From Minisyncoccota bacterium (GTDB lineage: Bacteria; Patescibacteriota; Minisyncoccia; Phycocordibacterales; SBAW01): a DNA stretch of 64,000 nt. Location of the stretch: assembly GCA_035546575.1 (NCBI GenBank), contig DASZWN010000001.1, forward strand, positions 119,254 to 183,253, given 5' to 3'. Shown here one piece after another: positions 1,294 to 32,551 of this stretch. The notes under the pieces were generated by a model. It worked only from the letters and a program-made list of their open reading frames with translations, did not search any database and had not been told where the DNA came from. Positions within the stretch are counted from its first letter, which is position 1; every line of letters starts with the position of its first letter. Made by a program: the position numbers and the translations under genes.

Positions 1294-2973
1294 ATGCAGG
1301 TTGATGAAGGGCAGCTCAGGGACTTTCTTATTGACTCAGGTCTGATGACCCGGAGCCAAGTGGCCGATGCCACAAGGCACTCGCAAGAGGAAAGCCTGCC
1401 TCTTTATACAACGCTCTCGCAGGGCGGTTACCTTGCGGCCGACGAGCTGCGCCGCGCGCTTGCCCACGCCTCGGGGGTAGCGTTTGTGCAGCTTAAGCAT
1501 GACGACATCTCCGCCAATGCGCTTGTGCTTATACCCGAGCCGGTCGCCCGCACCTACAACATGGTTGCGTTTAAGCAAGACGGCAACATAGTTGAGGTTG
1601 CGATGCTCGACTTGGCCGACTTGTCGCGTATCGACTTTTTGCGCGAAAAGCACGGCCTTACCATTGTGCCGCGGCTCACGACTGCCGAGTCTATAAAGCG
1701 CGCGCTCCATATCTACCAGAAGCATCTTAAAGAAAAGTTTTCGGCGCTGTTGCAGCATGGCACTACTGCTGTCGATGCGCTCATCCACCACGCGATACTC
1801 TCGTATGCCTCGGGCGTGCATCTCGACTTACACGACACGAGCATGTTGGTGCGCTACCGCATACAAGGTGTGCTCCACGAGGCAATGCGCTTGCCTGCCG
1901 ATGCCGCCACGATGCTCGAGCGTCTTAAAGAGTTGGCAAAGTTATCGCTCACACTGCATGTACCGCAAGAAGGCAGCTTTAGAGTCGAGATGGAAGGTGG
2001 GGACCAGGTAGGCGTGCGCGTTGCAACAGCACCAACCGCAAACGGCGAGCGCATGGTGCTGCACTTGACCCCCGATCGTGTTAGCAGCACCGGCTTTACG
2101 CTCTCGTCGCTTGGGCTGCACGGGCAAGCGCTCGAGGAAGCGCATCACATGCTGCAAACACGCTCAGGCCTTATTGTTGTGGCAGGGCGCGCGGGTGCGG
2201 GTAAAACTACAACGCTCTACACACTGCTCGACAATCTCTCGCAGCGCGACGCTGCAATCGCCACTATCGAGAGCGAGATAGAGCATCGCTTCCCGCATAT
2301 TGCACAGACACAAGTACGCCCCGACATCGGCGTAACATACGCGTCTGGTTTGCGTGCGCTGCTTAAACAAGACCCGGACATGGTAATGGTGGGGGAACTG
2401 AATGACGAAAAGACCGCAGCGCTCGCCGCGGCCGCAGCTGCGCGCGGCGTGCTGGTGCTCGCAGGCGTTGACCTGCCTGCCGGTAGGCAGGGGCTCGCTG
2501 CTGCAGCAATAGAGGTGCTGCGCGGGTTTGGTATCTCCGACCATTTGCTCGCGTCAACCTTACGCGGGGTTATAGGCGTGGAAGTTGTACGCAAACTTTG
2601 TAAAGAAGAGCGCGAGGAATATAGGCTTTCGCGCGCCGAGGGCGAGCCCATGGAGGGGCGGGCCAACTTTGGCCACGTGCTAGCGCAGCTTAAAGAGGAG
2701 GGGATAGTCCACAAAGACCTACCCTGGAAGGAATTACTGTTTGCCCGGGCCGAGCCCTGCTCTAACTGCGAGGATGGTTATGTGGGCCAAGTTGGCCTGC
2801 AGGAGGTGCTCCCCATCACCGCTACTATTAAAGAGAAGCTTATGGCTGGGGCCTTGGCCGAGGATATCGAGGCCTTGGCTCGGGCAGACGGGATGACCAC
2901 TACTATAGAAGACGGGCTTTTTAAGGCTGCCCAAGGAATAACAAGCGTTGAGGAGGTAGTTCGGGTTGTCTAA
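1294..2973 (+). CDS. Type II secretion / type IV pilus assembly ATPase, GspE/PilB family
   Basis: N-terminal T2SSE_N/MshEN-like domain. Walker A GRAGAGKTTT. Walker B/Glu box DPDMVMVGELND. C-terminal Cys cluster CSNCEDGY. The His box and Asp box look degenerate. Palindrome copy 2 lies in-frame at 2472-2493 and encodes LPAGRQG. Confidence 0.8.
   Translation: MQVDEGQLRDFLIDSGLMTRSQVADATRHSQEESLPLYTTLSQGGYLAADELRRALAHASGVAFVQLKHDDISANALVLIPEPVARTYNMVAFKQDGNIVEVAMLDLADLSRIDFLREKHGLTIVPRLTTAESIKRALHIYQKHLKEKFSALLQHGTTAVDALIHHAILSYASGVHLDLHDTSMLVRYRIQGVLHEAMRLPADAATMLERLKELAKLSLTLHVPQEGSFRVEMEGGDQVGVRVATAPTANGERMVLHLTPDRVSSTGFTLSSLGLHGQALEEAHHMLQTRSGLIVVAGRAGAGKTTTLYTLLDNLSQRDAAIATIESEIEHRFPHIAQTQVRPDIGVTYASGLRALLKQDPDMVMVGELNDEKTAALAAAAAARGVLVLAGVDLPAGRQGLAAAAIEVLRGFGISDHLLASTLRGVIGVEVVRKLCKEEREEYRLSRAEGEPMEGRANFGHVLAQLKEEGIVHKDLPWKELLFARAEPCSNCEDGYVGQVGLQEVLPITATIKEKLMAGALAEDIEALARADGMTTTIEDGLFKAAQGITSVEEVVRVV
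2472..2493. repeat. Palindromic element copy 2 (cctgcctgcc-ggta-ggcagggg), inside the gspE-like CDS
   Basis: Same core as 1252, 14472 and 32532. In-frame, encoding DLPAGRQGL. Confidence 0.7.
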
Positions 2974-4352: not shown

Positions 4353-4693
4353 TCCGAGTTCGGTGGCGATTGTAATGGCTCAAACCCATTACACTCGCCG
4401 CCCCTTTCAAGCATTTATCCGTCTCGATGCCGAGATGAGTGTTTGAAAGGGGAGGTTAGTATGTGCGTACTCCCCACAAGTTCTTCTCGCTGCGCTGGTT
4501 AACGCCCCGTGAGCCATGCGCGCGGTTGGCGCGGCGATCCCGACGAGTGTACTTCGTGCAGGGATCGCCGCCGCCTTCTTCTTTGTGGCAGTTTTTGGGC
4601 TATAAACGGATCCTCTACACTTCAGTCGACACAAATCCTGGGATTTGCATCGATTGGAGCGACCCGTTTGTAGCCCTAAGACTGTCATACCAA

Positions 4694-5512: not shown

Positions 5513-6481
5513 ATGATTAAACCAGTAGTAAGGTCAGTGAGAGATGCAGAGGTGAGCGGCAAGCGAGTGCTCGTGCGCGTCGACTTTAATGTGCCGATCA
5601 AGGACGGCAAGGTGGCGGAAGACATGCGCATTCGCGTGGCAATTCCAACGCTAGAACTCATTCACGAGCACGGAGCGTCGCAAATTGTATTGATCACACA
5701 TATTGGCCGGCCCGATGGAAAGGTTGTCGAAGAGTTACGCGTTGCTCCGGTTGCAGCACGTTTGCGTGAGCTAACCTCAATACCGTTTACCATGGAGGAA
5801 AATCTACGCTTTGACCCAGGCGACGAGGCCAACGACCCCGAGTTTGCAAAAAAGCTGGCAAGTCTCGGAGATATATTTGTAAACGACGCATTCTCGGTCT
5901 CGCATCGTGCGCATGCCTCCACGGTTGGCGTGGCGCAACTCCTGCCATCGTATGCGGGGCTTAATTTGGAAAAAGAGATCGAAAAACTCTCAGGCGCACT
6001 CACGCCGCCCCAAGGCGCGGTCGCGCTCATGGCCGTTACCAAAAAAGACAAGATCCCTCTTATCGACAAATTAGCGGGGCTCTACGCCAAGGTGCTTGTG
6101 GGCGGCCCTGTCCCGCCAGACTACGTGCCGAGCGCGCCAAACATCTTAATTCCAGCAGACGGCATCCCGGAGCTTACAGGCTTGCTTGATATTGGCCCTA
6201 ATACTCGCGAAGCATGGGTCGCATATGTGGCTCAGGCTCCGTTTGTGCTCTGGAACGGCCCTTTGGGTTGGTATGAAAAAGGGTACACGCAGAGTACCGA
6301 TGCTATTGCAAACCAGATCATCGCAAGCGGTACCGAGGCAGTGATAGGTGGAGGCGATACGGTTGCTGCACTTGAGAAGTTTCAATTCAACAGAGAAAAA
6401 GTTTTTATCTCCACGGGCGGAGGAGCAATGCTCGAGTTTTTGATAGCAGGCACCTTGCCCGGGATTGAGGTGCTAAAATAG
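5513..6481 (+). CDS. pgk: Phosphoglycerate kinase (compact, 322 aa)
   Basis: RVDFNVP, DAFSVSHRAH, WNGPLG, GGGDT, STGGGA motifs. Confidence 0.9.
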   Translation: MIKPVVRSVRDAEVSGKRVLVRVDFNVPIKDGKVAEDMRIRVAIPTLELIHEHGASQIVLITHIGRPDGKVVEELRVAPVAARLRELTSIPFTMEENLRFDPGDEANDPEFAKKLASLGDIFVNDAFSVSHRAHASTVGVAQLLPSYAGLNLEKEIEKLSGALTPPQGAVALMAVTKKDKIPLIDKLAGLYAKVLVGGPVPPDYVPSAPNILIPADGIPELTGLLDIGPNTREAWVAYVAQAPFVLWNGPLGWYEKGYTQSTDAIANQIIASGTEAVIGGGDTVAALEKFQFNREKVFISTGGGAMLEFLIAGTLPGIEVLK

Positions 6482-6487
6482 AAACAT

Positions 6488-6814
6488 ATGTACCCGAAGG
6501 GGACCGTAGTTGCGAGTGTTATTGCCGCATGTGTCTTGCTGCTTTTGCTCGCTGGAGCATTTTGGTATGGAATCCATGCGCCCCCAGCTCCAACCGCTAT
6601 TACAGAACCTGCTCAGGACATCATGCAAGCGGCAGAAAACAGAAAACAAGATTTGCTGCAACTTGCCGCTACGCTACAAACAGGTACCTCTTCCGAAACT
6701 GATGCAAAGCGCATGAGGGAGTTTGAGCATTTGCAGTCGCACGATACATCGGTCGCCAATACTGCCGCCGAAGAACAGCGCAGACAAGACCTCCTAAAAA
6801 TCGAAATTAAATAA
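6488..6814 (+). CDS. Hypothetical membrane-anchored protein
   Basis: N-terminal TM helix followed by a charged coil. Confidence 0.5.
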   Translation: MYPKGTVVASVIAACVLLLLLAGAFWYGIHAPPAPTAITEPAQDIMQAAENRKQDLLQLAATLQTGTSSETDAKRMREFEHLQSHDTSVANTAAEEQRRQDLLKIEIK

Positions 6815-6818
6815 AAGC

Positions 6819-7808
6819 ATGCATCGCTTATCACTCAAGCAAAAAACGATATTCTTGTGGGGCATTGAGTTGGCTATGGCTGTTGCTTTGGTGCTGGCAA
6901 TTACAGCTCCTCGTGCATACGTACCCAACGCTCATGCGCAGGCCGCAACTAACGCGGGTACTCTTACAGGATATGCATGGAGCGAGAACGTAGGCTGGCT
7001 CAGTTTCAGCGGCAGCAACTATGGCGTTACTGTTTCTCCGACCGATGGCAACACTCTCACAGGATATGCATGGAGCGAGAACGTAGGCTGGGTCAGTTTT
7101 ACGTCGAGCGATTTATCGGGTTGTCCCTCAGGCGCATGCTCCGCACGACTTACCGGCACAAAACCAAATGTCTCTTTGGCGGGTTGGGCGCGCGCATGCG
7201 CAAGTACCGACAGCGGCGCATGTAGTGGGGCACAACATGTCGGTGGGTGGGATGGATGGATAAGCCTAAGTGGCACCTCTCCCAACTATAGTCCGACGAT
7301 TTCAACATACGCACCTAAGCCGGGGGCTGGCGGGATATTGGAAGGCTATGCGTGGGGGAGTACCGTAATGGGATGGTTGCAATTTAACCCAGCCTTCGGG
7401 GGAGTAACCGTTGCACTCACCGCATGCAACGACGGACTCGACGAAGATGGTGACGGCAATCCTGACCTAACCGACCCAGATTGTGTCGATCTCACTACCG
7501 ACTCTGAGGGTTCTACAGCAGTTGGTGCAGTAGATATCAAAGTAAACGGGAGCGATAGCCTTTCGGTGCGCAGTGGTTCCAGTGTGTCTGTGACTTGGAC
7601 GAGCGCTCTAGTTGGAGGATGTACGCTGCAGTCGCCATCCGGCACAAACTCAGTTGCTGCCCAAAACACTACAGGTACTCCATTTACCATAGCTGCTATC
7701 ACCAAGTTTGCGCTCACATGTACTACGCTTGTCGGCGGTAATCCGACGGGCCCTGCAATAAGCGACTCGGTCACGGTGCGACTTATTCCGGTATACAAAG
7801 AAATTTAG
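6819..7808 (+). CDS. Secreted/surface repeat protein; two LTGYAWSENVGW(L/V)SF repeats, Cys-rich middle, shared C-terminal domain ending IPVYKEI
   Basis: Signal-anchor N-terminus. Tandem repeats. The C-terminal ~90 aa align with the C-terminus of 15723..19997 (..VTW..C.L....G....T.FT..CT......IPV[YF][KQ]EI). Confidence 0.7.
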   Translation: MHRLSLKQKTIFLWGIELAMAVALVLAITAPRAYVPNAHAQAATNAGTLTGYAWSENVGWLSFSGSNYGVTVSPTDGNTLTGYAWSENVGWVSFTSSDLSGCPSGACSARLTGTKPNVSLAGWARACASTDSGACSGAQHVGGWDGWISLSGTSPNYSPTISTYAPKPGAGGILEGYAWGSTVMGWLQFNPAFGGVTVALTACNDGLDEDGDGNPDLTDPDCVDLTTDSEGSTAVGAVDIKVNGSDSLSVRSGSSVSVTWTSALVGGCTLQSPSGTNSVAAQNTTGTPFTIAAITKFALTCTTLVGGNPTGPAISDSVTVRLIPVYKEI

Positions 7809-7826
7809 CCCTATAATTGTAAGCAT

Positions 7827-8888
7827 ATGCAAAGTGTCAAAACAAAAGTAGCTGAGCTGACCCGCTTCGCCAAGGCGTTCCTTTTAGCGGCACTGGTGCT
7901 GCTTGCCGCAGGTGCCTATGCCTGGACTGCGCCAACGCAAGCGCCACCTGCTGGCAACGTACAACCGCCTATCAACGCAGGCGGCTCATATCAAACAATC
8001 GGGATTCTTGCCAACGGCACGACTACCGCCATTACCGGCGGTCTCTTATCGAGCGATGTGTTTGTGGTGGGCTCACCTACACCAAGCTCTGCGCCGCATG
8101 GCTCTATTTGTCTTTCCGGGTCGTGCATTACGAGCTGGAATCAGGCGGCTGGAGGCACCGACTATCAAGTTTTTACGTCGAGCGGTACTTGGACAAAGCC
8201 TGCCGATACGAGCGCATCGTCGCGTACGCTTATCGAGTGCTGGGGCGCAGGCGGGGGAGGCAGCAATAACGGAGGCGGGGGAGGCGGTGCATACGATGCC
8301 GTATGGTCCCTTACCTCTTCACTTAGCTCGACCATTGCGGTAACCGTAGCTACAGCGCCGGCTACGTCGGTGGCGGGGGGCGACTCCTCTTTCGGTTCGC
8401 TCGTTATTGCCAAGGGGGGAGGCGCCGGCGGCGCTGGCGGAGGCGGAGGAGGCGGAGGATACAGCGCAACGGGGAGTAACGGCACTTCTGCTGGGGGAGA
8501 CGGCGGTAATCCGAAGGGTAGTTGGATCTACCCGGGGGTAATTCCTTACTGTCGAGGAGGTACAAGCAGCAAGGGGGCCACCGGCGGTTCCGCATGCGGC
8601 GGAGGTGGCGGCAACGCCAATACGGAAGGCTACGATAAGGGCGGTTATTCCGTCACCGGAGGGGGCGGCGGTGCCGGTAATCACAATGATTCCAACCCTG
8701 CTAACGGTGGCGACTCTGTGTATGGCGGCGGCGGCGGGTCGGCAGGATCTTCCGGGGGTACTGGCGGCCAAAGCATGTTCGGCGGCAATGGCGGGGCTAC
8801 GGGCAGTGCCGGAATTGCCCCCGGCGGCGGCGGCGGGCGCAACGCGCAAGGTGCTCGCGGTGAGTGCCGCGTGACTACGTTTAAATAA
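7827..8888 (+). CDS. Secreted glycine-rich protein carrying a TWTKP...LIECWGAGGGG module
   Basis: Signal anchor. The module FTSSGTWTKPAD...TLIECWGAGGGGSNNGGGGGGAY recurs at residues ~1000-1050 of 15723..19997. Long Gly/Ser/Thr/Asn-rich tail. Confidence 0.7.
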   Translation: MQSVKTKVAELTRFAKAFLLAALVLLAAGAYAWTAPTQAPPAGNVQPPINAGGSYQTIGILANGTTTAITGGLLSSDVFVVGSPTPSSAPHGSICLSGSCITSWNQAAGGTDYQVFTSSGTWTKPADTSASSRTLIECWGAGGGGSNNGGGGGGAYDAVWSLTSSLSSTIAVTVATAPATSVAGGDSSFGSLVIAKGGGAGGAGGGGGGGGYSATGSNGTSAGGDGGNPKGSWIYPGVIPYCRGGTSSKGATGGSACGGGGGNANTEGYDKGGYSVTGGGGGAGNHNDSNPANGGDSVYGGGGGSAGSSGGTGGQSMFGGNGGATGSAGIAPGGGGGRNAQGARGECRVTTFK

Positions 8889-9243: not shown

Positions 9244-10899
9244 ATGAAATCGTACAGAATCCGCGAACGCCAGGACGAAAATCTGCTTTCTGATTTGCTG
9301 TTGGCGCGTGGAGTAGAGGGCGAGGAGGCGCAGAAGCAGTTCTTGGTACCCGACTTTGAGCGCGACTCGGGCGACCCGATGCTATTGCCAGACATGGAAA
9401 AAGCAGTGGATCGTATTTTGTCTGCTGTAAAAAATAACGAGCCTGTGTGCGTGTGGAGCGACTACGACTGCGACGGTATCCCCGGTGGCGTGATGCTCAC
9501 TGAGTTTTTGCGAGGCATAGGGCTCACGGTGCGCCATTATATCCCGCATCGGCATACGGAAGGGTACGGATTGAACGAAGAGGGGATTGAAGAACTGTTT
9601 CAGCAGGGCATCAAGCTCATCATCACCATTGACCTGGGCACCACAGAGATAGAGCAGATCGCATATGCAAATACAAAAGGAGTTGATGTAATCGTGACCG
9701 ACCACCACGTAGTGCAGCACGACTTGCCGGATGCGTTTGCGCTTTTAAACCCTAAACGCCCCGACAGCAAATATGGGTTCGACGGCTTGTGTGGTGCAGG
9801 TGTCGCCTGGAAGTTGATACAAGGCATCCTTAGCAAAAACCGTTTTGGTTTGAAGGAAGGGCAGGAAAAGTGGCTGCTCGATTTTGTCGGTATTGCGACG
9901 CTCTCCGACATGGTGCCCTTGGTGGGAGAAAACCGGATGCTCGCGCACTTTGGCTTGCGCGTCATGCGCCGCGACCGCCGGCCGGGAATCTCCGCCCTCT
10001 TAAAAATGCTGCGCATTAAGCCCGCAAGCCTTACCGAAGACGATATCGGTTTTATGATCTCTCCGCGCATTAATGCCGCATCGCGCATGGACAAGCCCGA
10101 CACTGCTGCGCGGTTGCTTGCTACAAGCGACACAGTTGAGGCTGCTGAGATTGCGGAGGAGTTGAATCACATTAATGATGAGCGTAAAGGAGTTGTTGCT
10201 GCAATAGTAAAAGAGGCAAACAAACGCATGGCCGACACTCCTATTGATGGACCAGTTATTGTAATGGGCAACCCTAAGTGGCGCCCAGGCGTACTTGGGC
10301 TTGTTGCAAACAAGTTGATGGAGGATCACAACAAGCCGGTATTTTTGTGGGGACGCGAGGGCGGCGACGTTATAAAAGGCTCGTGTCGCAGTGACGGCAG
10401 CGTGAGCGTTGTCGACCTGATGGCTGCGACAGGAGATGTGTTTCTCGGGTTTGGCGGACATACCGCCTCAGGTGGATTTTCTGTAGACGCTGGAAACGTG
10501 CACGAGCTATTGCCGCGGCTTACTCAGGCATACGAGATCCTTAAAGCAAAGGCATCAGTGCAGCAAGATGTTGTAATCGATCGCCAGGCAGATGTTGCAG
10601 AAATCCCGCACGCGCACCGCGACCTTCTGAAGCTCGCTCCGTTTGGCATAGGCAATCCAAAGCCGTTATTTATGTTCCCGGGGGTGTCTATAGGCAACAC
10701 CAAAATGTTTGGCAAAACCGAGAACCATCTCGACATGAGCTTACAGAAAGATGGCGCTAGGATCTCGGGCATCGCGTTTTTCTCGACACGCGACTCGTTT
10801 ACTAAACCTGTCGCTACTGGCGAACGCGCCGACATCGTGGGTCATATAGAGAGCGACTGGCGCGGCAACTCCCGTATCCGAGTAGTTGATATACTGTAA
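9244..10899 (+). CDS. recJ: Single-stranded-DNA-specific exonuclease RecJ (DHH family)
   Basis: DYDCDG, VTDHHV (DHH) and GGHTASGG (GGGH-like) motifs; typical length. Confidence 0.85.
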   Translation: MKSYRIRERQDENLLSDLLLARGVEGEEAQKQFLVPDFERDSGDPMLLPDMEKAVDRILSAVKNNEPVCVWSDYDCDGIPGGVMLTEFLRGIGLTVRHYIPHRHTEGYGLNEEGIEELFQQGIKLIITIDLGTTEIEQIAYANTKGVDVIVTDHHVVQHDLPDAFALLNPKRPDSKYGFDGLCGAGVAWKLIQGILSKNRFGLKEGQEKWLLDFVGIATLSDMVPLVGENRMLAHFGLRVMRRDRRPGISALLKMLRIKPASLTEDDIGFMISPRINAASRMDKPDTAARLLATSDTVEAAEIAEELNHINDERKGVVAAIVKEANKRMADTPIDGPVIVMGNPKWRPGVLGLVANKLMEDHNKPVFLWGREGGDVIKGSCRSDGSVSVVDLMAATGDVFLGFGGHTASGGFSVDAGNVHELLPRLTQAYEILKAKASVQQDVVIDRQADVAEIPHAHRDLLKLAPFGIGNPKPLFMFPGVSIGNTKMFGKTENHLDMSLQKDGARISGIAFFSTRDSFTKPVATGERADIVGHIESDWRGNSRIRVVDIL

Positions 10900-10903
10900 T
10901 CTC

Positions 10904-11329
10904 ATGCAAAAGATCACGATTCATACCGATGGAGGAGCGAGGGGGAATCCGGGTCCGGCAGGCATTGGTGCTGTTGTCACAGACGAGAGGGGTACGGTGA
11001 TACGCGAGGTTTCCAAATACATCGGCGAGCAGACAAATAACTTTGCCGAGTACGAGGCACTTATTGTCGTCCTGAATGAGCTAAAGAAAATGTTTGGCGA
11101 AAAGCTGCGCGAGATGCAGTTGGAAGTAAAAATGGACTCCGAGCTCGTGGTGCGCCAGCTCTCCGGCATCTACAAAGTAAAAGAGCCAACGCTCAAAGAG
11201 CAATTTGCAAAGGTAGCCAAAATCCGCCTCGAAGACGCCCCCAACATGACCTTTACTCATGTCTTCCGCGAGGCAAACGCCCACGCCGACAAGCTGGTAA
11301 ACAAAGCCATAGACGCGAGCCTGAAATAA
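10904..11329 (+). CDS. rnhA: Ribonuclease HI
   Basis: TDGGARGNPGPAG, NNFAEYEAL, DSELVVRQ, REANAHADKL motifs. Start taken at the ATG of MQKITIH. Confidence 0.8.
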   Translation: MQKITIHTDGGARGNPGPAGIGAVVTDERGTVIREVSKYIGEQTNNFAEYEALIVVLNELKKMFGEKLREMQLEVKMDSELVVRQLSGIYKVKEPTLKEQFAKVAKIRLEDAPNMTFTHVFREANAHADKLVNKAIDASLK

Positions 11330-11344
11330 CGCTAAGGTACTGGC

Positions 11345-12676
11345 GTGAAATATTGGAGCATCTTTGGCCTCCTGGTGTTTGCATACGCGGCGCTTTTATT
11401 TGCTCGCGTTGTTTTTACGCTCAATGCCGAGGCTGCGGAGACTTTGCCTCTGTACGACGGACACACGGGTGCAGTGGTGGGGAGGGTAGTTAACGACCCT
11501 GACCGACGCGCTACTTCGCTCCATGTACATGTGAGGGTGGCGACAGTTGATGGCGAGCCCGCACGCGGTACGCTGCTTGCGCTTTTGCCGCCACAAGCAG
11601 AAGTTTCGTACGGCGACACCGTTGAGGTGTCGGGGACAATCAAAACACCAGAGCCGTTTGAGACCGACACGGGCCGCGAGTTTAACTACGCAGGCTATCT
11701 GCGCGTGCAAGGGGTCTCAATGATGATGCAAAAAGCTACGCTACAAAATGTAGAAGAGGGAGGACTATCTTTGCAAAAAACTCTTTTTAGCATCAAACAC
11801 ACGTTTGAACACTCGCTCGAGAAATTATTCCCCGAGCCGGACAACTCGCTGCTTGAGGGGATTCTGCTCGGCGAGCGCTCGGGGCTCCCGAAAGATGTAC
11901 AGAATGCGTTTATCGCATCGAGCTTGGTGCACGTGGTGGTGCTCTCCGGCTACAATATATCGATTGTTGCCAACGCGGTGCTCTACGCCACCTCGGGTTT
12001 GCCGCGCACATTCTCCTACGGCTTTGGCGGAATGCTCATGATCTTGTTTGCCATGATGACTGGTGCAGGTGCCACTACGGTGCGTGCATGCGCCATGGGA
12101 GTTATCTCTATTGTTGCGCAGTACATGCACCGGCCAACGGTCGCGATGCGCAGCCTTATCGCAGCGGCGGGTGCGATGATACTCTGGAACCCGCTTATTG
12201 TGCTCTACGACTCCTCTTTTATATTGAGTGTGCTCGCGACATTTGGACTCGTGACACTGTCACCGACGACCGAGCGGTGGGTAAGGTGGATCCCAGAGAA
12301 GTTTGGCCTACGGTCAATTGCCGCAGCAACAATCGCAGTGCAACTGTTTGTGCTGCCAGCACTTTTGTATTTTACCGGCGTACTTTCTGTTGTTGCACTG
12401 CCTGCAAATTTACTCGCGCTCCCTGTTGTGTCTTGGGCAATGTTGTTTGGTTTTATTGCGGGGCTTCTTGGATTTGTACATCCTGCACTCGCACTACCGT
12501 TCGCGATCCTCGGTGACGCGCTCCTTAGGTGGATGATGCTTGTAGCAAACACAGCAACCGCGTTCCCGTTCTCCTCGACAGTAGTGGCGGCTTTTCCTGC
12601 TTGGATACTTATAGCGATGTATATTCCGCTAACGACTATTGCCACTAAGATTTACCTTACACAAAGTAACTCATAA
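11345..12676 (+). CDS. comEC: ComEC/Rec2 DNA internalisation channel, N-terminal DUF4131-like plus competence domain only (no MBL domain)
   Basis: LLGERSGLPKDVQNAFIASSLVHVVVLSGYNISIV core and multiple TM segments. The protein ends before an MBL domain. Confidence 0.8.
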   Translation: MKYWSIFGLLVFAYAALLFARVVFTLNAEAAETLPLYDGHTGAVVGRVVNDPDRRATSLHVHVRVATVDGEPARGTLLALLPPQAEVSYGDTVEVSGTIKTPEPFETDTGREFNYAGYLRVQGVSMMMQKATLQNVEEGGLSLQKTLFSIKHTFEHSLEKLFPEPDNSLLEGILLGERSGLPKDVQNAFIASSLVHVVVLSGYNISIVANAVLYATSGLPRTFSYGFGGMLMILFAMMTGAGATTVRACAMGVISIVAQYMHRPTVAMRSLIAAAGAMILWNPLIVLYDSSFILSVLATFGLVTLSPTTERWVRWIPEKFGLRSIAAATIAVQLFVLPALLYFTGVLSVVALPANLLALPVVSWAMLFGFIAGLLGFVHPALALPFAILGDALLRWMMLVANTATAFPFSSTVVAAFPAWILIAMYIPLTTIATKIYLTQSNS

Positions 12677-12739
12677 AAAAGTCCTTAGCCCCATTTCGCT
12701 TCGCGAAACGGCACGCCCCCACCTAGACTTTTTTCTGAG

Positions 12740-13333
12740 CTACTTTGTCACGGCTTCAAACCGCTTCTCGATAACAGACCAATTAAGATTTTTGAAAAAC
12801 GCGTCTATATATTTGCCGCGGCCGGTGGCACCTTGGTCAAGTATGTATGCGTGCTCCCACACGTCGATGGCAAGCATAATAGGGAGCGTCACAAAGTGGC
12901 CCTGATGCTGCTCGCCCGAGAAGCCAGCAATAAATTGTTTTGTCTCAGGGTCCCAGTACAAAATCGCCCAACCCGGCCCGCGTGTTGACGCGATGCTCTT
13001 GAGATACGGCTCAATGTGCGCAGCCTTCATATAATCTTTTGTGAGCGCTGCCTCGAATGCACCGCCGCTTGTAATCGGCGTAGCGCCACCCTCGAGCTGC
13101 TCAAAGTAATACTCGTGCAAGCGCATACCGTCCCACTCAAACGCGCGGCGGCGGAATATCTCGGCGAGCGCGTGGGCGTTCTTCTCGGCCTCCTTGGCGT
13201 ACTCCGGCATCAAGGCCGACATCGCATTAAAGTTTTTTACATAGCCTGCATAGAGGGCGAGGTGCTGGTCTATAGATTCCTTAGAGATACCCTCTAGAGC
13301 GGGGATAGTAAACTGTTTTTCTTGGTATTGCAT
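12740..13333 (-). CDS. sodA: Fe/Mn superoxide dismutase
   Basis: DVWEHAYILD metal-binding motif and N-terminal FTIPALEG. The ORF-track GTG start at 13366 is also possible. Confidence 0.85.
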   Translation of the reverse strand: MQYQEKQFTIPALEGISKESIDQHLALYAGYVKNFNAMSALMPEYAKEAEKNAHALAEIFRRRAFEWDGMRLHEYYFEQLEGGATPITSGGAFEAALTKDYMKAAHIEPYLKSIASTRGPGWAILYWDPETKQFIAGFSGEQHQGHFVTLPIMLAIDVWEHAYILDQGATGRGKYIDAFFKNLNWSVIEKRFEAVTK

Positions 13334-13471
13334 GTGTTCAGTAAAACATCTTAATTCTAAAGACACCCTAAAGATATCCCCATAAGGGTTGCAAAAAGTA
13401 CTATTTGTGGCATAGTTCTGTGTAGTTAGTCCTTAGCCGCAATCTGCGGCGTTTCAAAACGGGGGAACCCA

Positions 13472-13780
13472 ATGAAATATGTTTTAGGTGTTGCTTTGGT
13501 CGGGATAGCGGCGGGAGCGTGTTTCGCACTCGCTAATCCCAGCCCAATCGATACGCTGTTCACAAAAGCGGGAATGATGATCCTGCCCCACAAAGGGCAA
13601 GACCGCATTTTTCCGGCCGGCAAGGGTTTTGGCACGGTAGTGGTGCCAGATCCTGAGAACCGTATCACCAGGGTCAGCAAGCCAATTACGGTCGAGATGG
13701 AGCCGAGCGCAGCCGATCTGGCAGCGTACGACTACATGCTCGCCATCGGCCTGGCCGACACTGGCAAGCCCGACCACTAA
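13472..13780 (+). CDS. Hypothetical secreted protein
   Basis: SD GGGGGA. Signal-peptide-like N-terminus (VALVGIAAGACFALA). Intrinsic terminator downstream at 13800-13836. Confidence 0.5.
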   Translation: MKYVLGVALVGIAAGACFALANPSPIDTLFTKAGMMILPHKGQDRIFPAGKGFGTVVVPDPENRITRVSKPITVEMEPSAADLAAYDYMLAIGLADTGKPDH

Positions 13781-13799
13781 CAATCCCAGATTTTCTGGG

Positions 13800-13836
13800 C
13801 AAGAAGGCGCGATGCGAATCGCGCCTTCTTTCTTTT
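13800..13836 (+). terminator. Intrinsic terminator (agaaggcgcga/tcgcgccttct 11-bp stem + T-run)
   Basis: Perfect 11-bp stem, 6-nt loop, TTTCTTTTT. Confidence 0.65.
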
Positions 13837-13837
13837 T

Positions 13838-14743
13838 ATGTATACTTTGCGCATGCAGTTTTTGCGCCGATACTTTTCTTACCTTATCCTTGCTGCTCTG
13901 GTTTTAATTTCAATCGGCATCTGGTCAGTTGTTTGGGCCGAGACTGCGCCCGGCAAACTCATTGTTGCGGTGCTCGACGTCGGCCAAGGCGACTCCATTT
14001 TTATAGAGTCTCCAACCGGAGTGCAGATTATTATCGATGGCGGCCCCGACAACTCTCTTTTGCACGACCTGCCGCATGTGATGCCGCTCTCTGACCGCTC
14101 TATCGACGCGGTGCTCGCAACGCACCTCGACGCTGACCACATCACCGGCTTTATTGACCTGCTCAAGCGCTACTCAGTTGGCGCGTTTATTGAATCAGGT
14201 TTAGTTAAGAGTACACTCACTGCGCGCACATTAGAAAAAGAAGTTGATGCGGAAAAAATCCCCCGCACGATCGCACGCCGGGGCATGTCGCTTGACCTCG
14301 GCGGGGGAGCGTATCTTGATGTCTTGTCTCCTGACTACGATGTCTCCATCTTGCCAGAGGACAAAGGCAACGAGGGGTGCATTGTCGCACATTTGGTCTA
14401 CGGCAAAACCTCGATGCTTTTAATGTGCGACGCATCTATGGATGTTGAGGATCATATTATGGCACTTGGGAGCCTGCCTACCGGACAGGCAGGCACAACG
14501 CAGATCAAAAGCGATATTTTAAAAGTCGGACACCATGGTTCGCACTCTTCGACGGGAGATGAATTTGTGAGCGAGGTTGACCCGTCGGTTGCCATTATCT
14601 CGGTTGGCGCACACAACACGTACGGTCACCCGGCTGAGCAGACACTCGACACCCTCGCAGCTCATAATGTAGAAACCCTCCGTACAGACGAGGAGGGGAC
14701 TATCAAGTTTATTTCGAACGGGGAGAAGTTTGTGAGGGATTAG
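13838..14743 (+). CDS. ComEC C-terminal metallo-beta-lactamase domain protein, encoded as a separate gene
   Basis: VLDVGQGDS, THLDADHITG, VGHHGSHSS, NTYGHP motifs and an N-terminal TM. Palindrome copy 3 lies in-frame at 14472-14494 and encodes LPTGQAGT. Confidence 0.8.
   Translation: MYTLRMQFLRRYFSYLILAALVLISIGIWSVVWAETAPGKLIVAVLDVGQGDSIFIESPTGVQIIIDGGPDNSLLHDLPHVMPLSDRSIDAVLATHLDADHITGFIDLLKRYSVGAFIESGLVKSTLTARTLEKEVDAEKIPRTIARRGMSLDLGGGAYLDVLSPDYDVSILPEDKGNEGCIVAHLVYGKTSMLLMCDASMDVEDHIMALGSLPTGQAGTTQIKSDILKVGHHGSHSSTGDEFVSEVDPSVAIISVGAHNTYGHPAEQTLDTLAAHNVETLRTDEEGTIKFISNGEKFVRD
14472..14494. repeat. Palindromic element copy 3 (gcctgcct-accggac-aggcaggc), inside the comEC-MBL CDS
   Basis: Same CCTGCC...GGCAGG core as 1252, 2472 and 32532. 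Confidence 0.6.
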
Positions 14744-14982
14744 ATAACCCCGGCTGCCTTGAGAGTCTTGTACGCGCCGTTTTTTGTAACGGTGCGCATA
14801 CCTTTTGTCGAGAGAGTAACGGTAACGGTGCGATTAAGTTCTGGTACAAAGATGCGCTTCTTCTGCATATTCGGTTGTTTCCGAACTATACCAGTGGGGT
14901 TGAACTTGGTTGCGCGGATGCGGTTAGAATAGCCGCCTGCGACCTTGGACCCCTTTTTTGTTACCGGGCAGATTTTAGCCAT
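14740..14982 (-). CDS. rpmB: 50S ribosomal protein L28
   Basis: MAKICPVTKKGSKV..NRIRATKFNPTG.. is typical of bL28. Confidence 0.85.
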   Translation of the reverse strand: MAKICPVTKKGSKVAGGYSNRIRATKFNPTGIVRKQPNMQKKRIFVPELNRTVTVTLSTKGMRTVTKNGAYKTLKAAGVI

Positions 14983-15022
14983 ACGTTTTAGTGCTCAAGC
15001 ATGATATCATCATTCTACAAAT

Positions 15023-15670
15023 ATGCCAACTGAGCTTGTTTTCGGCCTCCTGGTGCTCATTTTCTCGGTTATTTTGCACGAGGTGGCCCACGGCTATATG
15101 GCCAATTGGCTAGGCGATCCGACAGCGCGTCTTGCTGGTCGGCTAACGCTCAATCCAATCTCGCATATCGACCCGATAGGTTCGGTTATCTTGCCGGGTC
15201 TACTCCTCATCACGCAGCCGCTCACGGGCTTTCCGTTTTTGATCGGCTATGCCAAGCCGGTGCCCTATAATCCGTATAACCTGCATGGTAAGTACGACGA
15301 GGCGCTTGTTGCCGGCGCCGGCCCGGCAACCAATATCTTACTCGCTCTTATTTTTGGTCTGCTTATCCGCTTTGGAGGAGCGGGGATCGACATCTCAGTA
15401 CTGAGCGCGTTTGCTACGATCGCTTACATCAATATGCTGCTCGCACTCTTCAACCTCATTCCCATCCCGCCCCTGGACGGCTCCAAAGTGCTTTCGGGTA
15501 TTTTGCCTCGAGGTTTGGCGCACTCATATGACCTCTTCCGTTCCAACTTTGAGCGGCTCGGCGTGCTCCAGGGGACTCTCCTTATAATGATCGTTTTCTA
15601 CTTTTTATCGCCGTTTTTTACCGCACTTCTGAGATTTTGCTTTGGCGTGCTCACTGGCGTGACAATATAA
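15023..15670 (+). CDS. Site-2 protease family (M50) membrane metalloprotease
   Basis: HEVAHG (HExxH) zinc site, NLIPIPPLDGSKVL motif and multiple TM helices. Confidence 0.75.
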   Translation: MPTELVFGLLVLIFSVILHEVAHGYMANWLGDPTARLAGRLTLNPISHIDPIGSVILPGLLLITQPLTGFPFLIGYAKPVPYNPYNLHGKYDEALVAGAGPATNILLALIFGLLIRFGGAGIDISVLSAFATIAYINMLLALFNLIPIPPLDGSKVLSGILPRGLAHSYDLFRSNFERLGVLQGTLLIMIVFYFLSPFFTALLRFCFGVLTGVTI

Positions 15671-15722
15671 TGTGTGTTGATAACCCTTCGTTCTAAAAAG
15701 GCCGCAGCACCCTATACTTACG

Positions 15723-18700
15723 TTGATGTCTCACGAATTCCTGCCGAGGATTTCTTTCAACAGACTTACACTACTAGCTAAGCTCACCGGAGGTGTTGCG
15801 GCGCTGGTTATGTTTGCCGTTGTCTTTAGCGGACGCATACCGATTAGCGGAGGGCTTGGAGCGGCGACCGCTACGTTCGCCGACGGCTCTGTGCTTACTC
15901 TCACTGCGGCAGACTCCTCTGTTACATCGGGGAATTCGACTAAACTTTCTTGGAACGCAAATTTACTCCCATCCTGTTTCGGCAGCGATACGACCGGTTG
16001 CGGCAAAGCAAATGCATCTATTGCAAGCATACTTCCGGTACAAGTATTTACTATTGGAACAGACCCCACACCGTATCTTTTGGCGCAGAACGGGATATAT
16101 AAATGGATCACGTCCGGCCCCACCGGAGCGCCATGCTTTGGCAAGGATACCTCAAGCTCGTGCGGAACAGTATTCCAATCAATTCCTCCATTAACCAATG
16201 GCCAGCAGGGAATAATGGCATTTACAGCGAGCAACGGCACTACCTACCTTGCGACGGTGGAAGTATATGCTTCTCCTCGCCTCTACAAATGGCTTCCGAC
16301 GCAAAATAGCGGAAACGGATGCTTCGGCAATGGCACTACCTGCATGAGTTCTGCGGCCGCATCCATGTTTCAGAATAACTTTCCTACAGGACCGTATTCT
16401 GAAGGAGGATTTGATTGGGAATATGCATATATAGGAGGCAATGACTACGTAATGCTCACGGTAGGAAATGCGGTGTATGTATACAAATGGATAGCAGGTA
16501 CCAAGAACTGCTTCGGAGACGGAACAAACTGCGCGACACCGGCAGTCCAATTCCAAACTATTGCGCCGCCATCTCCTCAAAGTTTCTACATGAGAGCTTT
16601 CTCTATAGGAACTGGTGCGTATCTTATTGTCGCCGACAGTACTACCTCTACCGGAGGGAACTCCGTCGTCTACCGGTGGAACCCGACCGCCAACAGTAGC
16701 AAGGGCTGCTTCGGGAGTACCTCGAGTTCCAATTGTGGTACGGCCTTCCAAAGCGGATTGTCCCGCGGGGCGTCTGCCTCGACAGCGGTGTCGGTGACCA
16801 CGCTTGGAAGCGATCAAAATCCTTACCTATTTCTCGCCCCTGGCGTAGGAGGTGTAGGAGGTTCTGATAATGCGGGGCTCATATATAAATGGAATCCCTC
16901 TGGTAATAGTAGTAATGGCTGTTTCGGTACTGGCTCGGGAACTGCCTGCGGTACAAGCAGCGGTAATTTCTTCCAGAAACTGCCTCTAGCTAACTGGCAA
17001 ATGACGGCAACTACCACACCAATCGGCACATTTTTGGTAACTATGGTTAACAGCTATGACGCAACTCCGGGGAACGTATATAAGTGGAACCCGACCGGCA
17101 ATGGCGGCTTAGGTTGTTTCGGTAATGGAACTGCTTGCGAATCCGCAACGACCAAAACCAATGTATGGCAGACGCCGTTTGATTATATAGCTGCGCCAAC
17201 TACCTACGCCCTCCTTTCGGGGAATACTTATATCGTTACGCCGTATTCCGCAACTCAAGGCGGCACGTACGGAGCGGGCATCTTTAAACCTCGATATCCG
17301 ACCTGTTCGGTAACATGGAGTAATGCAGGAGGTTCAGGGACGATTGGATCTGGAGTCGTCGGTGTAAACGTAGATACCCCGCCTATAACCCAAAACACCA
17401 CCTACACGCTCAACTGTGTTGGCGTGGGCAGCGTACAAGTTCAGGTAACTATCGCGGCAGCTGCGGTTACTCCTATTGTCTCTGTCTCCACGATTGCATC
17501 TCCCGCAACCGAGTCCGGCACACCGGGAACATTGCGCATCACTCGGGCTGCCGGTACCACCGCATCCAAAACAGTATTTTTAGATTCTGCCTCTGGTTGG
17601 ACACAACGACCGTCAGCCGGCAACCGTAGCTGGTCGAGCATCACCTCTTCTTCCGACGGCACCAAGCTTGCGGCGGTGGTAGGGCTCGATTCAGCCGGCT
17701 ACATCTATACCTCGACCGACTCCGGCGCTACGTGGACGGAGCGTACCGGCGCGGGAAGTCATAAGTGGGGAAGCATCGCATCGTCCGCCGACGGCACTAA
17801 GCTCGTGGCGGTAGTAGGTGGACCGGGAGAAGGACAATCTGAATTAGGCTACATCTATACCTCGACCGACTCCGGCGCCACGTGGACCCAGCGCACTGGC
17901 TCCGGCAGCCGCGATTGGATCTCCGTTACCTCTTCTAGCAATGGAACTAAGCTTGCGGCTGCAGTATTCGGCGGCTACATCTATACCTCGACCGATTCCG
18001 GCGCTACGTGGACGCAACGTGCAAGCAGCCGTCTGTGGAGTTCAATCACTTCCTCTGCCGACGATGGCACCAAGCTCGCCGCAGCGGTACAAAGCGGCTA
18101 CATCTATACCTCGACCGATTCCGGCGCTACGTGGACGGAGCGCACGACTGCAGGCAATCGTTATTGGAATTCCATCACCTCTTCTTCCGACGGCACCAAG
18201 CTTGCGGCGGGAGTGTACCCTCAAAGCCCAGACGAATCCATCTACCGCTCTTCGGATAGCGGTGCCACCTGGGCTCCTGATCCTAGCGTCGGTTCGCATG
18301 ATTGGCAGTCAGTCACCTCCTCTTCCGACGGTACTAAACTTGCTGCAGTTACTGAATCAGATACGGAAGGAGGCGGTTATTCTTACACAGGTAGTTTTCC
18401 TGTGAATCAGTGGACGGTACCTTCCGATTGGAACAGCAGTAATAATAAAATTGAGGTTATTGGTGGCGGAGGAGGCGCTGCTTCGACTGGCGGTGGCGGT
18501 GCAGGAGGCGGATACTCAAAATCATTAAATGTCTCTCTTACACCCGGCGCCTCTCTTGCTTATAGCGTTGGTTCGGGCGGTGCGGGAGGAGGTCCAGGGG
18601 GCACTTACCCATCCTGTGTCCTCGGTGCAGTCGGGGGCAATACATACATATGTAATTCGACCGGCAGTTGCACTTCCTTGTCGGATAGCGGAGTTTTGGT

Positions 18701-19997
18701 AGGTGCCCAAGGCGGCGGCGGCGGATCGTTCGGTGCCCCGAGCACTAACGCTGTAGGCGGCGATGCGGCTAATGGGAAGGGCAATTCCAGCAAATATTCG
18801 GGAGGGAACGGCGGATACGGATATGGAGGGACTTCGGGCGGCGGTGGCGGCGCTGCCGGTCCTGCCGGTAAAGGGGGCGCAGGCGGTCCTGCTTTTGGAG
18901 GGACTGCAGTATCAGGTGCTGGCGGTGGTGGCAATGGCGGCGGCACAGACGGTACAAAGGGCGCGGGAGTAACTACCGGCGGGGCGGGTGGAAATAATGC
19001 GAATGGTACCGGCGGAGGGACAGCGGGCAATCCCGGTAATCCTGGTTCCAGCGGCGGCGGAGGCGGTGGTGCCGGAGGAGGAAACAGTAATCCCAATGTT
19101 GCCGGCGGAGCAGGAGGCGGAGGGATTGAATGGGATTCTTCTCACGGTTCGGGCGGCGGCGGCGGCGCTGGCGCACGGAAGAATAGCTCTATGTCCAATG
19201 GAGGAAACGGCGGACTGTATGGCGGCGGCGGCGGTGCCGGAGGAGCGGATGCCGGCACCGGTGCCTGCGGCACAGGCGGCAATGGAGCTCCAGGCATTAT
19301 CGTCATTACCTATACGCCTGCCGGCGGCACGCTTGATACCTCTGCAGCTCTTCCTGTTACGTTTTCGCTCGCGACGGGTGGTAATAACGCGATTCGCAAC
19401 AGCGACTACACGCTGTCGGGCGCAAGTATTGCAAATCCTTCCGGAAATACACTCACTATTCCGGCAGGACAAGCGTCTGTCGACGTGACAATAACTCCCG
19501 TCCAGGATCTTCTTTATGAAGGCAATGAGCCGGTCACTATGACTATCCAACCGCCTGGCGACTCCAGCTATACCGTCGGTTCTCCGAACAGCGATACTGT
19601 CACCATCGTGGATCAGCAGGGTCCGACATCGTTACCAAATTCTTCAGGAGGGCTCACCTCATGTGTAGGCGTCGCAAGCGCGTCATGCAATCTCGGAGTT
19701 ACGCCGCAGCGTGTCCGCAGCGGAAGCTCCGTAACGGTTACGTGGTACGTGTCTGGTCTCATTACCGGAGCCAACGGGAACGGAAGCGACTCGTGCGTTA
19801 TTACTAAAACTCCTGATGACTCAGTCTTTCCTCAGAGTTGGAATCAATCCGGCAGTACCTGGATAAACGGCGGGGGTGTTTCGTCAGTCATCACTCAAAA
19901 CAGCGTATTCACGCTTACCTGTACCGCCCCTGACGGGATTACTAAAACCAGCACTTCGCAGTTGATCAGCATCATACCGGTTTTCCAAGAGATATAA
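15723..19997 (+). CDS. Giant secreted/surface protein, 1424 aa. Order: seven Cys-containing YKW-P..GCFG..C..FQ repeats, six BNR/Asp-box repeats (TDSGATWT), a Gly-rich TWTVP...VIGGGGG module, a Calx-beta-like domain, then the shared C-terminal domain ending IPVFQEI
   Basis: Signal anchor. Repeats visible in the translation: SxDxGxTW six times, consistent with a beta-propeller. Gly-rich region of about 300 aa. C-terminal ~90 aa homologous to the C-terminus of 6819..7808. Confidence 0.8.
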   Translation: MMSHEFLPRISFNRLTLLAKLTGGVAALVMFAVVFSGRIPISGGLGAATATFADGSVLTLTAADSSVTSGNSTKLSWNANLLPSCFGSDTTGCGKANASIASILPVQVFTIGTDPTPYLLAQNGIYKWITSGPTGAPCFGKDTSSSCGTVFQSIPPLTNGQQGIMAFTASNGTTYLATVEVYASPRLYKWLPTQNSGNGCFGNGTTCMSSAAASMFQNNFPTGPYSEGGFDWEYAYIGGNDYVMLTVGNAVYVYKWIAGTKNCFGDGTNCATPAVQFQTIAPPSPQSFYMRAFSIGTGAYLIVADSTTSTGGNSVVYRWNPTANSSKGCFGSTSSSNCGTAFQSGLSRGASASTAVSVTTLGSDQNPYLFLAPGVGGVGGSDNAGLIYKWNPSGNSSNGCFGTGSGTACGTSSGNFFQKLPLANWQMTATTTPIGTFLVTMVNSYDATPGNVYKWNPTGNGGLGCFGNGTACESATTKTNVWQTPFDYIAAPTTYALLSGNTYIVTPYSATQGGTYGAGIFKPRYPTCSVTWSNAGGSGTIGSGVVGVNVDTPPITQNTTYTLNCVGVGSVQVQVTIAAAAVTPIVSVSTIASPATESGTPGTLRITRAAGTTASKTVFLDSASGWTQRPSAGNRSWSSITSSSDGTKLAAVVGLDSAGYIYTSTDSGATWTERTGAGSHKWGSIASSADGTKLVAVVGGPGEGQSELGYIYTSTDSGATWTQRTGSGSRDWISVTSSSNGTKLAAAVFGGYIYTSTDSGATWTQRASSRLWSSITSSADDGTKLAAAVQSGYIYTSTDSGATWTERTTAGNRYWNSITSSSDGTKLAAGVYPQSPDESIYRSSDSGATWAPDPSVGSHDWQSVTSSSDGTKLAAVTESDTEGGGYSYTGSFPVNQWTVPSDWNSSNNKIEVIGGGGGAASTGGGGAGGGYSKSLNVSLTPGASLAYSVGSGGAGGGPGGTYPSCVLGAVGGNTYICNSTGSCTSLSDSGVLVGAQGGGGGSFGAPSTNAVGGDAANGKGNSSKYSGGNGGYGYGGTSGGGGGAAGPAGKGGAGGPAFGGTAVSGAGGGGNGGGTDGTKGAGVTTGGAGGNNANGTGGGTAGNPGNPGSSGGGGGGAGGGNSNPNVAGGAGGGGIEWDSSHGSGGGGGAGARKNSSMSNGGNGGLYGGGGGAGGADAGTGACGTGGNGAPGIIVITYTPAGGTLDTSAALPVTFSLATGGNNAIRNSDYTLSGASIANPSGNTLTIPAGQASVDVTITPVQDLLYEGNEPVTMTIQPPGDSSYTVGSPNSDTVTIVDQQGPTSLPNSSGGLTSCVGVASASCNLGVTPQRVRSGSSVTVTWYVSGLITGANGNGSDSCVITKTPDDSVFPQSWNQSGSTWINGGGVSSVITQNSVFTLTCTAPDGITKTSTSQLISIIPVFQEI

Positions 19998-32531: not shown

Positions 32532-32551
32532 CCTGCCTGCCGGCAGGCAGG
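32532..32551. repeat. Palindromic element copy 4, a perfect 20-bp palindrome cctgcctgccggcaggcagg, intergenic just after rplB
   Basis: Perfect palindrome sharing its core with 1252, 2472 and 14472. Confidence 0.75.

Follow-up and report, generated by a model that had tools for sequence, protein, structure and literature searches.

Separate channel and nuclease genes suggest a two-subunit ComEC in a Minisyncoccota bacterium and its relatives

Results

The two parts of ComEC lie in separate genes

A stretch of 64,000 nucleotides from the metagenome-assembled genome of a Minisyncoccota bacterium (GenBank assembly GCA_035546575.1, contig DASZWN010000001.1, positions 119,254 to 183,253; hereafter the window) contains the parts of the DNA-uptake protein ComEC in two genes. 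The first encodes the OB fold and membrane channel, and the second, ∼1.2 kb downstream of the channel gene stop (12676), encodes a transmembrane (TM) helix and a metallo-beta-lactamase (MBL) domain. A superoxide dismutase (SOD) gene in reverse orientation, a small open reading frame (ORF) and two hairpins lie between them (Table 1). A preliminary description, made from the sequence alone, had proposed either a gene fission followed by rearrangement or a two-component ComEC. We consider it probable, from the sequence comparisons and predicted structures given below, that the window encodes a two-subunit ComEC.

The product of the upstream gene matches the Pfam families Competence (PF03772; E 1e-44, 153 bits, cut-off 23) and DUF4131 (PF13567; E 5e-12, 46 bits, cut-off 31.6). 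It carries no C-terminal MBL nuclease on the same polypeptide, so that the ORF and Pfam results agree with the preliminary description, in which this DUF4131 and competence-domain gene stops short of an MBL domain. The protein begins with one TM helix, continues with the OB fold (DUF4131) and the competence/channel domain, and has a short tail in the cytoplasm past the last helix. Its AlphaFold2 model (pLDDT 81) has a helix at residues 4-30, a beta-barrel at residues 41-137 and then helices up to residue 441. By sequence it aligns to the solved ComEC structures 9vc6 and 30bt. A Foldseek search of the Protein Data Bank (PDB) with the model gave nothing significant, only weak OB-fold matches (an SSB-type protein and the ComEC OB domain 9iew), and returned no full-length ComEC structure, whereas the sequence search did find such structures. 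The protein is 100% identical to the public protein P0121, and its best 120 relatives are all stand-alone proteins of 440-510 aa.

The downstream gene encodes an Arg-rich N-terminus, one hydrophobic TM helix that corresponds to TM11 of fused ComEC, then a linker and a ComEC-type MBL domain (Lactamase_B, Pfam E 6e-13). ATG 13853 is the likely start, rather than 13838, because the public protein P0001, a 100% identical match, has 296 aa and most homologues begin MxFLRRY. The motifs GQGD, H-x-D-x-D-H (here HLDADH), D198 and HHGS are present and are invariant in 62 relatives; the TM segment and the sequences VLDVGQGDS, HLDADH and GHHGSHS quoted in the preliminary description are thus as stated there. 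H-x-D-x-D-H is the motif variant published for the ComEC MBL domain. Since the N-terminus (MQFLRRYF) is positively charged, the positive-inside rule would locate the MBL domain extracellularly, which is also its place in fused ComEC. No convincing promoter was found by a promoter scan upstream of either the channel or the MBL gene; a TATACT box at 13841-13846, 6 nt 5′ of ATG 13853, could give rise to a leaderless MBL transcript.

At E<0.001 the PDB sequence matches of the MBL protein were ComEC entries only, namely the isolated MBL domain 9ic4 (2e-30) and residues 517-789 of 30bt (9e-30). The AlphaFold2 model (pLDDT 93.6, helix at residues 2-30) likewise had 9ic4 as its top Foldseek match (E 3e-25, TM-score 0.85, 31% identity). 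When 1.84 billion cluster representatives were searched exhaustively, 2,368 matched at E≤1e-30. The best 150 of these comprised ∼135 stand-alone proteins (270-310 aa) and 10-11 fused ComECs (746-818 aa), in which the MBL domain begins near residue 472-543 and is 37-44% identical to that of the window; the best 120 relatives of the MBL half were all stand-alone, with ∼290 aa. The second Foldseek match was the phosphorylcholine esterase Pce (Pce/CbpE, PDB 2bib and 1wra; E 1e-14, TM-score 0.70), the nearest non-ComEC fold, ten orders of magnitude weaker than 9ic4. Since the literature, too, names Pce as nearest in structure to the ComEC MBL domain, the protein might be a non-nuclease cell-surface phosphodiesterase, for example a Pce-like esterase acting on wall polymers. 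We regard this as very unlikely: the protein shares 15-17% identity with Pce, compared with 31% for the ComEC MBL structure and 43% for the C-terminal domain of a fused ComEC, and the PDB sequence search gave no non-ComEC chain at E 0.001. Pce also differs in its substrate and has no link to a channel gene. We conclude from sequence, predicted structure and motifs that the stand-alone MBL is of the ComEC type; it groups with ComEC MBL domains and not with the other MBL families that the preliminary description had named as a possible objection.

The two proteins together cover fused ComEC

When the two proteins were aligned to the 663 positions of the ComEC/Rec2 model TIGR00361, the channel half covered positions 82-375 (79.7 bits) and the MBL half positions 406-663 (109.1 bits, E 1.7e-31). 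Neither half alone reaches the equivalog cut-off of 190 bits; the plain sum of the two scores is 188.8. The halves also fell side by side, with no overlap, on the fused 787-aa ComEC P0285 (channel half at residues 72-475, 26% identity; MBL half at 532-779, 43%). On the full-length ComEC 30bt, residues 88-427 of the channel protein align to 144-482 and the MBL half aligns to 517-789. Between these two stretches ∼34 residues of 30bt are left unmatched; their counterparts are the final 16 residues of the channel protein and the first 20 of the MBL protein, so that nothing is missing.

The cryo-EM study of 30bt counted 11 TM helices, with a short helix in the cytoplasm between TM10 and TM11, and described an MBL domain on a flexible linker that is positioned by a small conserved contact with a loop of the OB fold; TM11 was absent from the map in one protomer. 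These alignments put the break in the cytoplasmic TM10-TM11 loop, with TM11, linker and nuclease domain making up the MBL protein. The loop is a natural break point, given the cytoplasmic helix there, the missing TM11 in one protomer and the flexible attachment of the MBL domain. The window proteins thus share with fused ComEC/Rec2 (TIGR00361; Neomoorella carbonis 30bt, Bacillus subtilis) the OB fold, the channel, and TM11 with an H-x-D-x-D-H MBL domain, in the same order, and jointly cover the whole protein, but the polypeptide is broken into two genes. They differ further in that the channel half has one predicted TM helix before the OB fold, where three are predicted for most ComECs.

Separate halves are widespread in the candidate phyla radiation

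The gene block of the window recurs on NCBI, JGI, ENA and Logan assemblies whose MBL is as little as 62% identical, in the order TIM, PGK, HIT, RecJ, RNase H, channel, reversed SOD, (small ORF), MBL, L28, M50. An assembly or sequencing artefact, or a decaying pseudogene, as the origin of the split therefore has a negligible probability in our estimation. We found no point in support of it, two intact genes lie between the halves, and the arrangement is identical in dozens of independent assemblies, so that the assembly error considered in the preliminary description does not apply. Moreover, alignments of 62 sequences of each half show no variation in the catalytic and structural residues, and both AlphaFold2 models are confident.

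To survey the architecture of ComEC, we classified 84 loci with purpose-built profiles: the window, 3 loci from earlier look-ups, and 80 from a scan of one genome per GTDB species with an MBL alignment. The window's arrangement of channel, reversed SOD and MBL was found at 25 of the 84 loci. Channel and MBL were directly adjacent as separate ORFs at 18, separated by a gap of 229-974 nt at 8, and fused in a single ORF at 7; at one locus the channel gene lay on the opposite strand, and at the remaining 25 the available DNA held an MBL but no channel gene. The fused loci were labelled Chloroflexota, Dehalococcoidales, Margulisiibacteriota, Acidiferrum, WOR-1 and Atribacterota, and fused forms occur mostly outside the candidate phyla radiation (CPR). 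Separate halves, on the other hand, occur in many CPR relatives, so that the comparison of architectures called for by the preliminary description shows the split to be both lineage-wide and CPR-wide. The two-gene ComEC is accordingly the normal state of a very large group and not an oddity of the window genome.

Where the two genes are adjacent, the start of the MBL gene touches or overlaps the stop of the channel gene (with ATGA overlaps in L041, L043, L069, L081 and L082), and every MBL gene encodes an N-terminus rich in Lys/Arg and a TM helix of its own. Because these pairs have other neighbours, lacking the RecJ, RNase H or L28 genes of the window, the pairing of channel and MBL is independent of wider synteny. 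The loci with an intervening SOD form a single clade in a neighbour-joining tree of MBL domains, which fits one insertion event. Since this clade stands apart from other CPR lineages, which keep the pair adjacent, the SOD gene between the halves appears to be a later rearrangement; it looks like a neutral, ancient insertion. In other CPR lineages guanylate kinase (gmk; L035, L038, L056) or RNase III (rnc; L030) fills the gap in place of SOD, so that unrelated genes have been inserted between the halves more than once.

As to the direction of the change, fused forms fall in at least two places among the split forms in the MBL tree, whose deep branches are too short to trust, and fused and split forms are interleaved by similarity in the cluster search. 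Fission and an ancestral, never-fused state both fit these data. Of the fission followed by rearrangement proposed earlier, the rearrangement holds for SOD, and it does not exclude the two-component alternative.

Stand-alone ComEC-type MBLs with no channel gene within 10 kb were also seen outside the CPR, in Clostridium, Veillonella and other Firmicutes (L058, L062, L065, L066, L074, L079), and one Elusimicrobia locus (L051) has two such MBL genes in tandem. Pimentel & Zhang 2018 count the Clostridiaceae with the groups in which the MBL domain of ComEC has been 'lost'; their ComEC nuclease may be encoded elsewhere, not lost.

Genes and hairpins between the two halves

The gene between the halves on the reverse strand matches Sod_Fe_C (E 5.7e-17, 62 bits against a cut-off of 20.9), with the Sod_Fe_N domain at 17.4 bits, below its cut-off of 27; all NCBIfam SOD models score far below their own cut-offs. 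Its best PDB matches are Fe-SODs (1coj, 2e-20), with which the H, H, D, H metal-ligand positions align. The likely start at 13333 gives 197 aa, as in relatives, and the protein appears to be a divergent SOD of the Fe/Mn family. The convergent gene noted in the preliminary description is present, although the name sodA was too precise given that the best solved relatives are Fe-SODs. In relatives the channel and SOD genes overlap by ∼46 nt, instead of sharing the unusually long hairpin that covers both stops in the window.

The small ORF encodes a 102-aa protein with an N-terminal signal peptide, as described earlier, and a possible lipobox (AAGAC); it had no Pfam or NCBIfam match. ORFs of 124-140 aa, 22-32% identical and also without a Pfam match, are found at the same position in L001, L003 and L086, and L004 has no ORF there. 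The position of the small ORF thus seems conserved and its sequence poorly so, with absence in one relative.

The hairpin that follows the small ORF has a 13-bp stem (7 G-C pairs), a 4-nt loop and a T-run (−30.6 kcal/mol, z −6.2). It was called by the terminator scan, fits the definition of an intrinsic terminator and ends 13 nt before the likely MBL start. The long inverted repeat at the convergent stops has 23-nt arms with 91% complementarity around an inner 9-bp stem, forming a nested hairpin of −28.9 kcal/mol on the plus strand and −44.4 kcal/mol on the minus strand (z −5.5 and −6.7). It lacks the canonical T-tail of an intrinsic terminator and was not called by the scan; it is possibly a bidirectional terminator. 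Of the terminators earlier assigned to both intervening genes, then, the canonical one beyond the small ORF is confirmed and the one at the SOD gene is not.

A dispersed palindrome within the MBL gene

The MBL gene carries an in-frame copy of a palindrome that is dispersed in the window, as the preliminary description had noted. This copy, CCTGCCTACCGGACAGGCAGG, is 21 nt long and encodes LPTGQAG. The pattern CCTGCC..GGCAGG matches the window 6 times, compared with 0.07 expected, at four sites of which two are double-counted as nested; the sites, G+C-rich and of 16-21 nt, are at 1256-1271, 2472-2491, 14473-14493 and 32532-32551. The LPTGQAG segment is missing from 13 of 15 aligned MBL homologues and lies in a surface loop, the sole low-confidence loop of the AlphaFold2 model (low pLDDT, residues 205-220). 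A relative with 84% MBL identity lacks the insert, and the 64%-identical orthologue in L086 has it at the same codon position (4624-4644), with one loop base different and diverged flanks.

The type IV pilus ATPase gene of the window (2472-2491), the SOD gene of L008 and the OB-fold region of two channel homologues contain related copies, which encode LPAGRQG or a similar peptide, so that the peptide pattern LP(A/T)G(R/Q)(Q/A)G recurs in unrelated genes (PilB, ComEC MBL, SOD, ComEC OB fold); the loci with copies include L046 and L048. The pilus ATPase gene of the window has, besides its in-frame copy, another just 5′ of its start. A 20-nt form, CCTGCCTGCCGGCAGGCAGG, was found on at least 120 metagenome contigs. 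About two-thirds of these CCTGCCTGCCGGCAGGCAGG copies lie outside long ORFs, and the rest occur in all three frames, with a mild excess of the LPAGRQ frame. We conclude that the palindrome is a small dispersed element tolerated in surface loops and is not specific to ComEC. It resembles the Rickettsia palindromic elements, reportedly in-frame selfish palindromes of ∼100-150 bp in protein genes, in its tolerated in-frame insertion into coding genes, but differs from them in being 16-21 nt long and mostly outside long ORFs in metagenomes.

Genomic neighborhood

The features of the locus are listed in Table 1. An Rfam scan of 10800-15800 gave no match above threshold, the sole match being P11 at E 0.12. 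A type IV pilus assembly ATPase gene (PilB-like, with T2SSE and MshEN domains) lies at 1294-2973, 8 kb upstream of the ComEC genes; type IV pili cooperate with ComEC in DNA uptake.

Table 1. Features of the ComEC locus, in positions of the window.
Feature	Position	Strand	Remarks
RecJ	9244-10899		
RNase H	10886-11329		
ComEC channel gene	11345-12676	+	443 aa
Long inverted repeat	12661-12748	.	covers stop codons of the convergent channel and SOD genes
Fe/Mn-family superoxide dismutase (SOD), putative	12740-13333	-	197 aa from ATG 13333; ORF reaches 13366
Small signal-peptide ORF	13472-13780	+	102 aa
Intrinsic-terminator-like hairpin	13801-13840	+	
ComEC nuclease (MBL) gene, putative	13853-14743	+	296 aa; 301 aa if the start is 13838
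In-frame palindrome in MBL gene	14473-14493	+	21 nt
Ribosomal protein L28	14740-14982	-	
M50 site-2 protease	15023-15670		

Two regions near the block vary among relatives. Upstream (region 5513-8888), the PGK ORF of the window has 322 aa, compared with 356-374 aa in relatives, and two ORFs without a Pfam match (6819-7808 and 7827-8888) sit between PGK and HIT. PGK adjoins HIT in L001, and in L003 and L004 there is at most a ∼60-aa ORF between them; the window may contain a 2.4-kb insertion here. Just 3′ of the M50 protease lies a gene for a very large, variable protein (window 15723-19997, L001 8891-12142, L003 8925-12926). The window protein, of 1424 aa, contains a long Gly-rich region as well as repeats of a BNR/Asp-box-like unit, YIYTSTDSGATWT, and the same slot holds Kelch repeats in L001 and Calx-beta in L003. 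This slot looks like a fast-changing surface-protein locus.

Discussion

Three findings support the two-component ComEC of the preliminary description: together the halves make up a fused ComEC, the nuclease half has its catalytic residues intact, and the pair is linked across CPR lineages with differing neighbours. In the model that we propose, the first subunit would provide the DNA-binding OB fold and the membrane channel and end in the cytoplasm after the TM10-equivalent helix. The second would be a single-pass protein with its N-terminus inside and C-terminus outside, its helix corresponding to TM11 and its outside domain being the MBL nuclease. The anchor helix, together with the small contact between OB-fold loop and MBL seen in fused ComEC, would position the nuclease at the channel's outer mouth, where it would degrade the non-imported strand while the other strand passes through. 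Ancestrally, the two genes would have been neighbours with coupled translation, an arrangement that persists in many CPR lineages, and insertion of a reversed SOD gene in the ancestor of the window's Paceibacterota clade would have placed them on separate transcripts. The comparisons show the identity of the domains, the fit of the halves to fused ComEC, the conserved catalytic residues and how the gene arrangements are distributed; that the two proteins assemble, cut DNA and act in its uptake is inferred.

Three observations weigh against this model. First, because the convergent SOD gene and the hairpins separate them, the channel and MBL genes appear to be on separate transcripts in the window genome. 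Second, ∼18 loci with at least 3 kb of upstream sequence have no channel gene within reach of the MBL gene, so that linkage of the two is not obligatory. Third, when the isolated ComEC MBL domain was studied in vitro, adding a separate soluble OB fold gave no gain in rate (0.29 vs 0.26 per min). In published work the isolated domain bound DNA too weakly to measure and was a slow enzyme alone, and covalent fusion to the OB fold raised the rate about seven-fold. As the OB fold in solution gives no gain and covalent fusion does, a split enzyme would need real docking, and this need argues for assembly over a free-acting enzyme, though it is no proof.

A free-acting enzyme is one alternative: the MBL protein might be an independent, membrane-anchored extracellular nuclease that scavenges environmental DNA without docking, its proximity to the channel gene being left over from ancestry. 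In addition to the separate transcription units, many MBL loci, including those of Clostridium, Veillonella and Wildermuthbacteria, have no channel gene within 10 kb, and CPR bacteria lack nucleotide synthesis and, according to the literature, probably scavenge DNA. However, the pair is adjacent, often with overlapping stop and start, in many CPR lineages with differing neighbours, the anchor helix and TM11 of fused ComEC are homologues, and the undetectable DNA binding and slow rate of the isolated domain do not suit an enzyme acting alone. We therefore think an independent nuclease unlikely, and prefer a two-subunit ComEC.

A more tentative proposal, which we hold to be possible but doubtful, is that ComEC was originally a two-subunit protein. 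TM11 of fused ComEC would then be the relic signal-anchor of a once-separate nuclease, and the CPR, with some Firmicutes that have unlinked stand-alone MBLs, would keep that state.

A CPR ComEC of the channel type has been studied genetically: SEML1_0777 of Southlakia epibionticum, a 482-aa protein with Competence and DUF4131 only, is needed for natural transformation. In this cultured, transformable Saccharibacterium, SEML1_0132 could be an equivalent MBL subunit or a different MBL; it has 211 aa and matches another Pfam family (PF13483), and is a lead only. SEML1_0132-0134 (PMC10633639 supplement) comprise this MBL-fold protein directly upstream of L28 (on the minus strand) and a site-2 protease, which are the downstream neighbours in the window too, and the MBL-less ComEC is encoded 600 kb from SEML1_0132.

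A separate membrane-bound nuclease beside ComEC is known from Streptococcus pneumoniae, where EndA degrades the non-imported strand. The separate nuclease of the window would differ in being ComEC's own MBL module; to our knowledge, EndA is not an MBL-fold enzyme.

Parts of this arrangement have been described before. Pimentel & Zhang 2018 report that the DUF4131 and Competence profile without Lactamase_B ('DC-profile'), which is that of the window channel gene, is common, and infer repeated gains and losses of Lactamase_B, and Méheust 2019 had already published the absence of the ComEC-MBL fusion in the CPR. Both studies scored Competence-containing proteins only, and the passages searched name no linked, separate MBL partner. 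What the window adds, relative to those passages, is an identified, linked ComEC-type MBL partner with mapped linkage. A 2025 NAR paper noted that MBL-less ComEC variants exist and left open the transformability of their hosts. Our literature search, whose coverage was incomplete, found no paper on a linked separate MBL partner, a TM11 anchor, or SOD, gmk or rnc insertions. In databases, JGI labels both halves 'competence protein ComEC' and NCBI labels the MBL half 'MBL fold metallo-hydrolase' only. The COG database has long had separate groups for the two parts of ComEC. The two-gene ComEC is therefore best seen as a rarely discussed and under-described variant, of modest interest.

For the window itself the arrangement is ordinary, being the norm of its clade. 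ComEC is the universal gate for transforming DNA, and recent structural studies are concerned with the interplay of its OB fold, channel and nuclease and with the question whether nuclease-less ComECs work. A natural and widespread split ComEC would be a ready-made system for asking if covalent linkage is needed. It also suggests that surveys limited to Competence-domain proteins overestimate the loss of the nuclease, and it offers one specific gene for deletion in a genetically tractable CPR bacterium.

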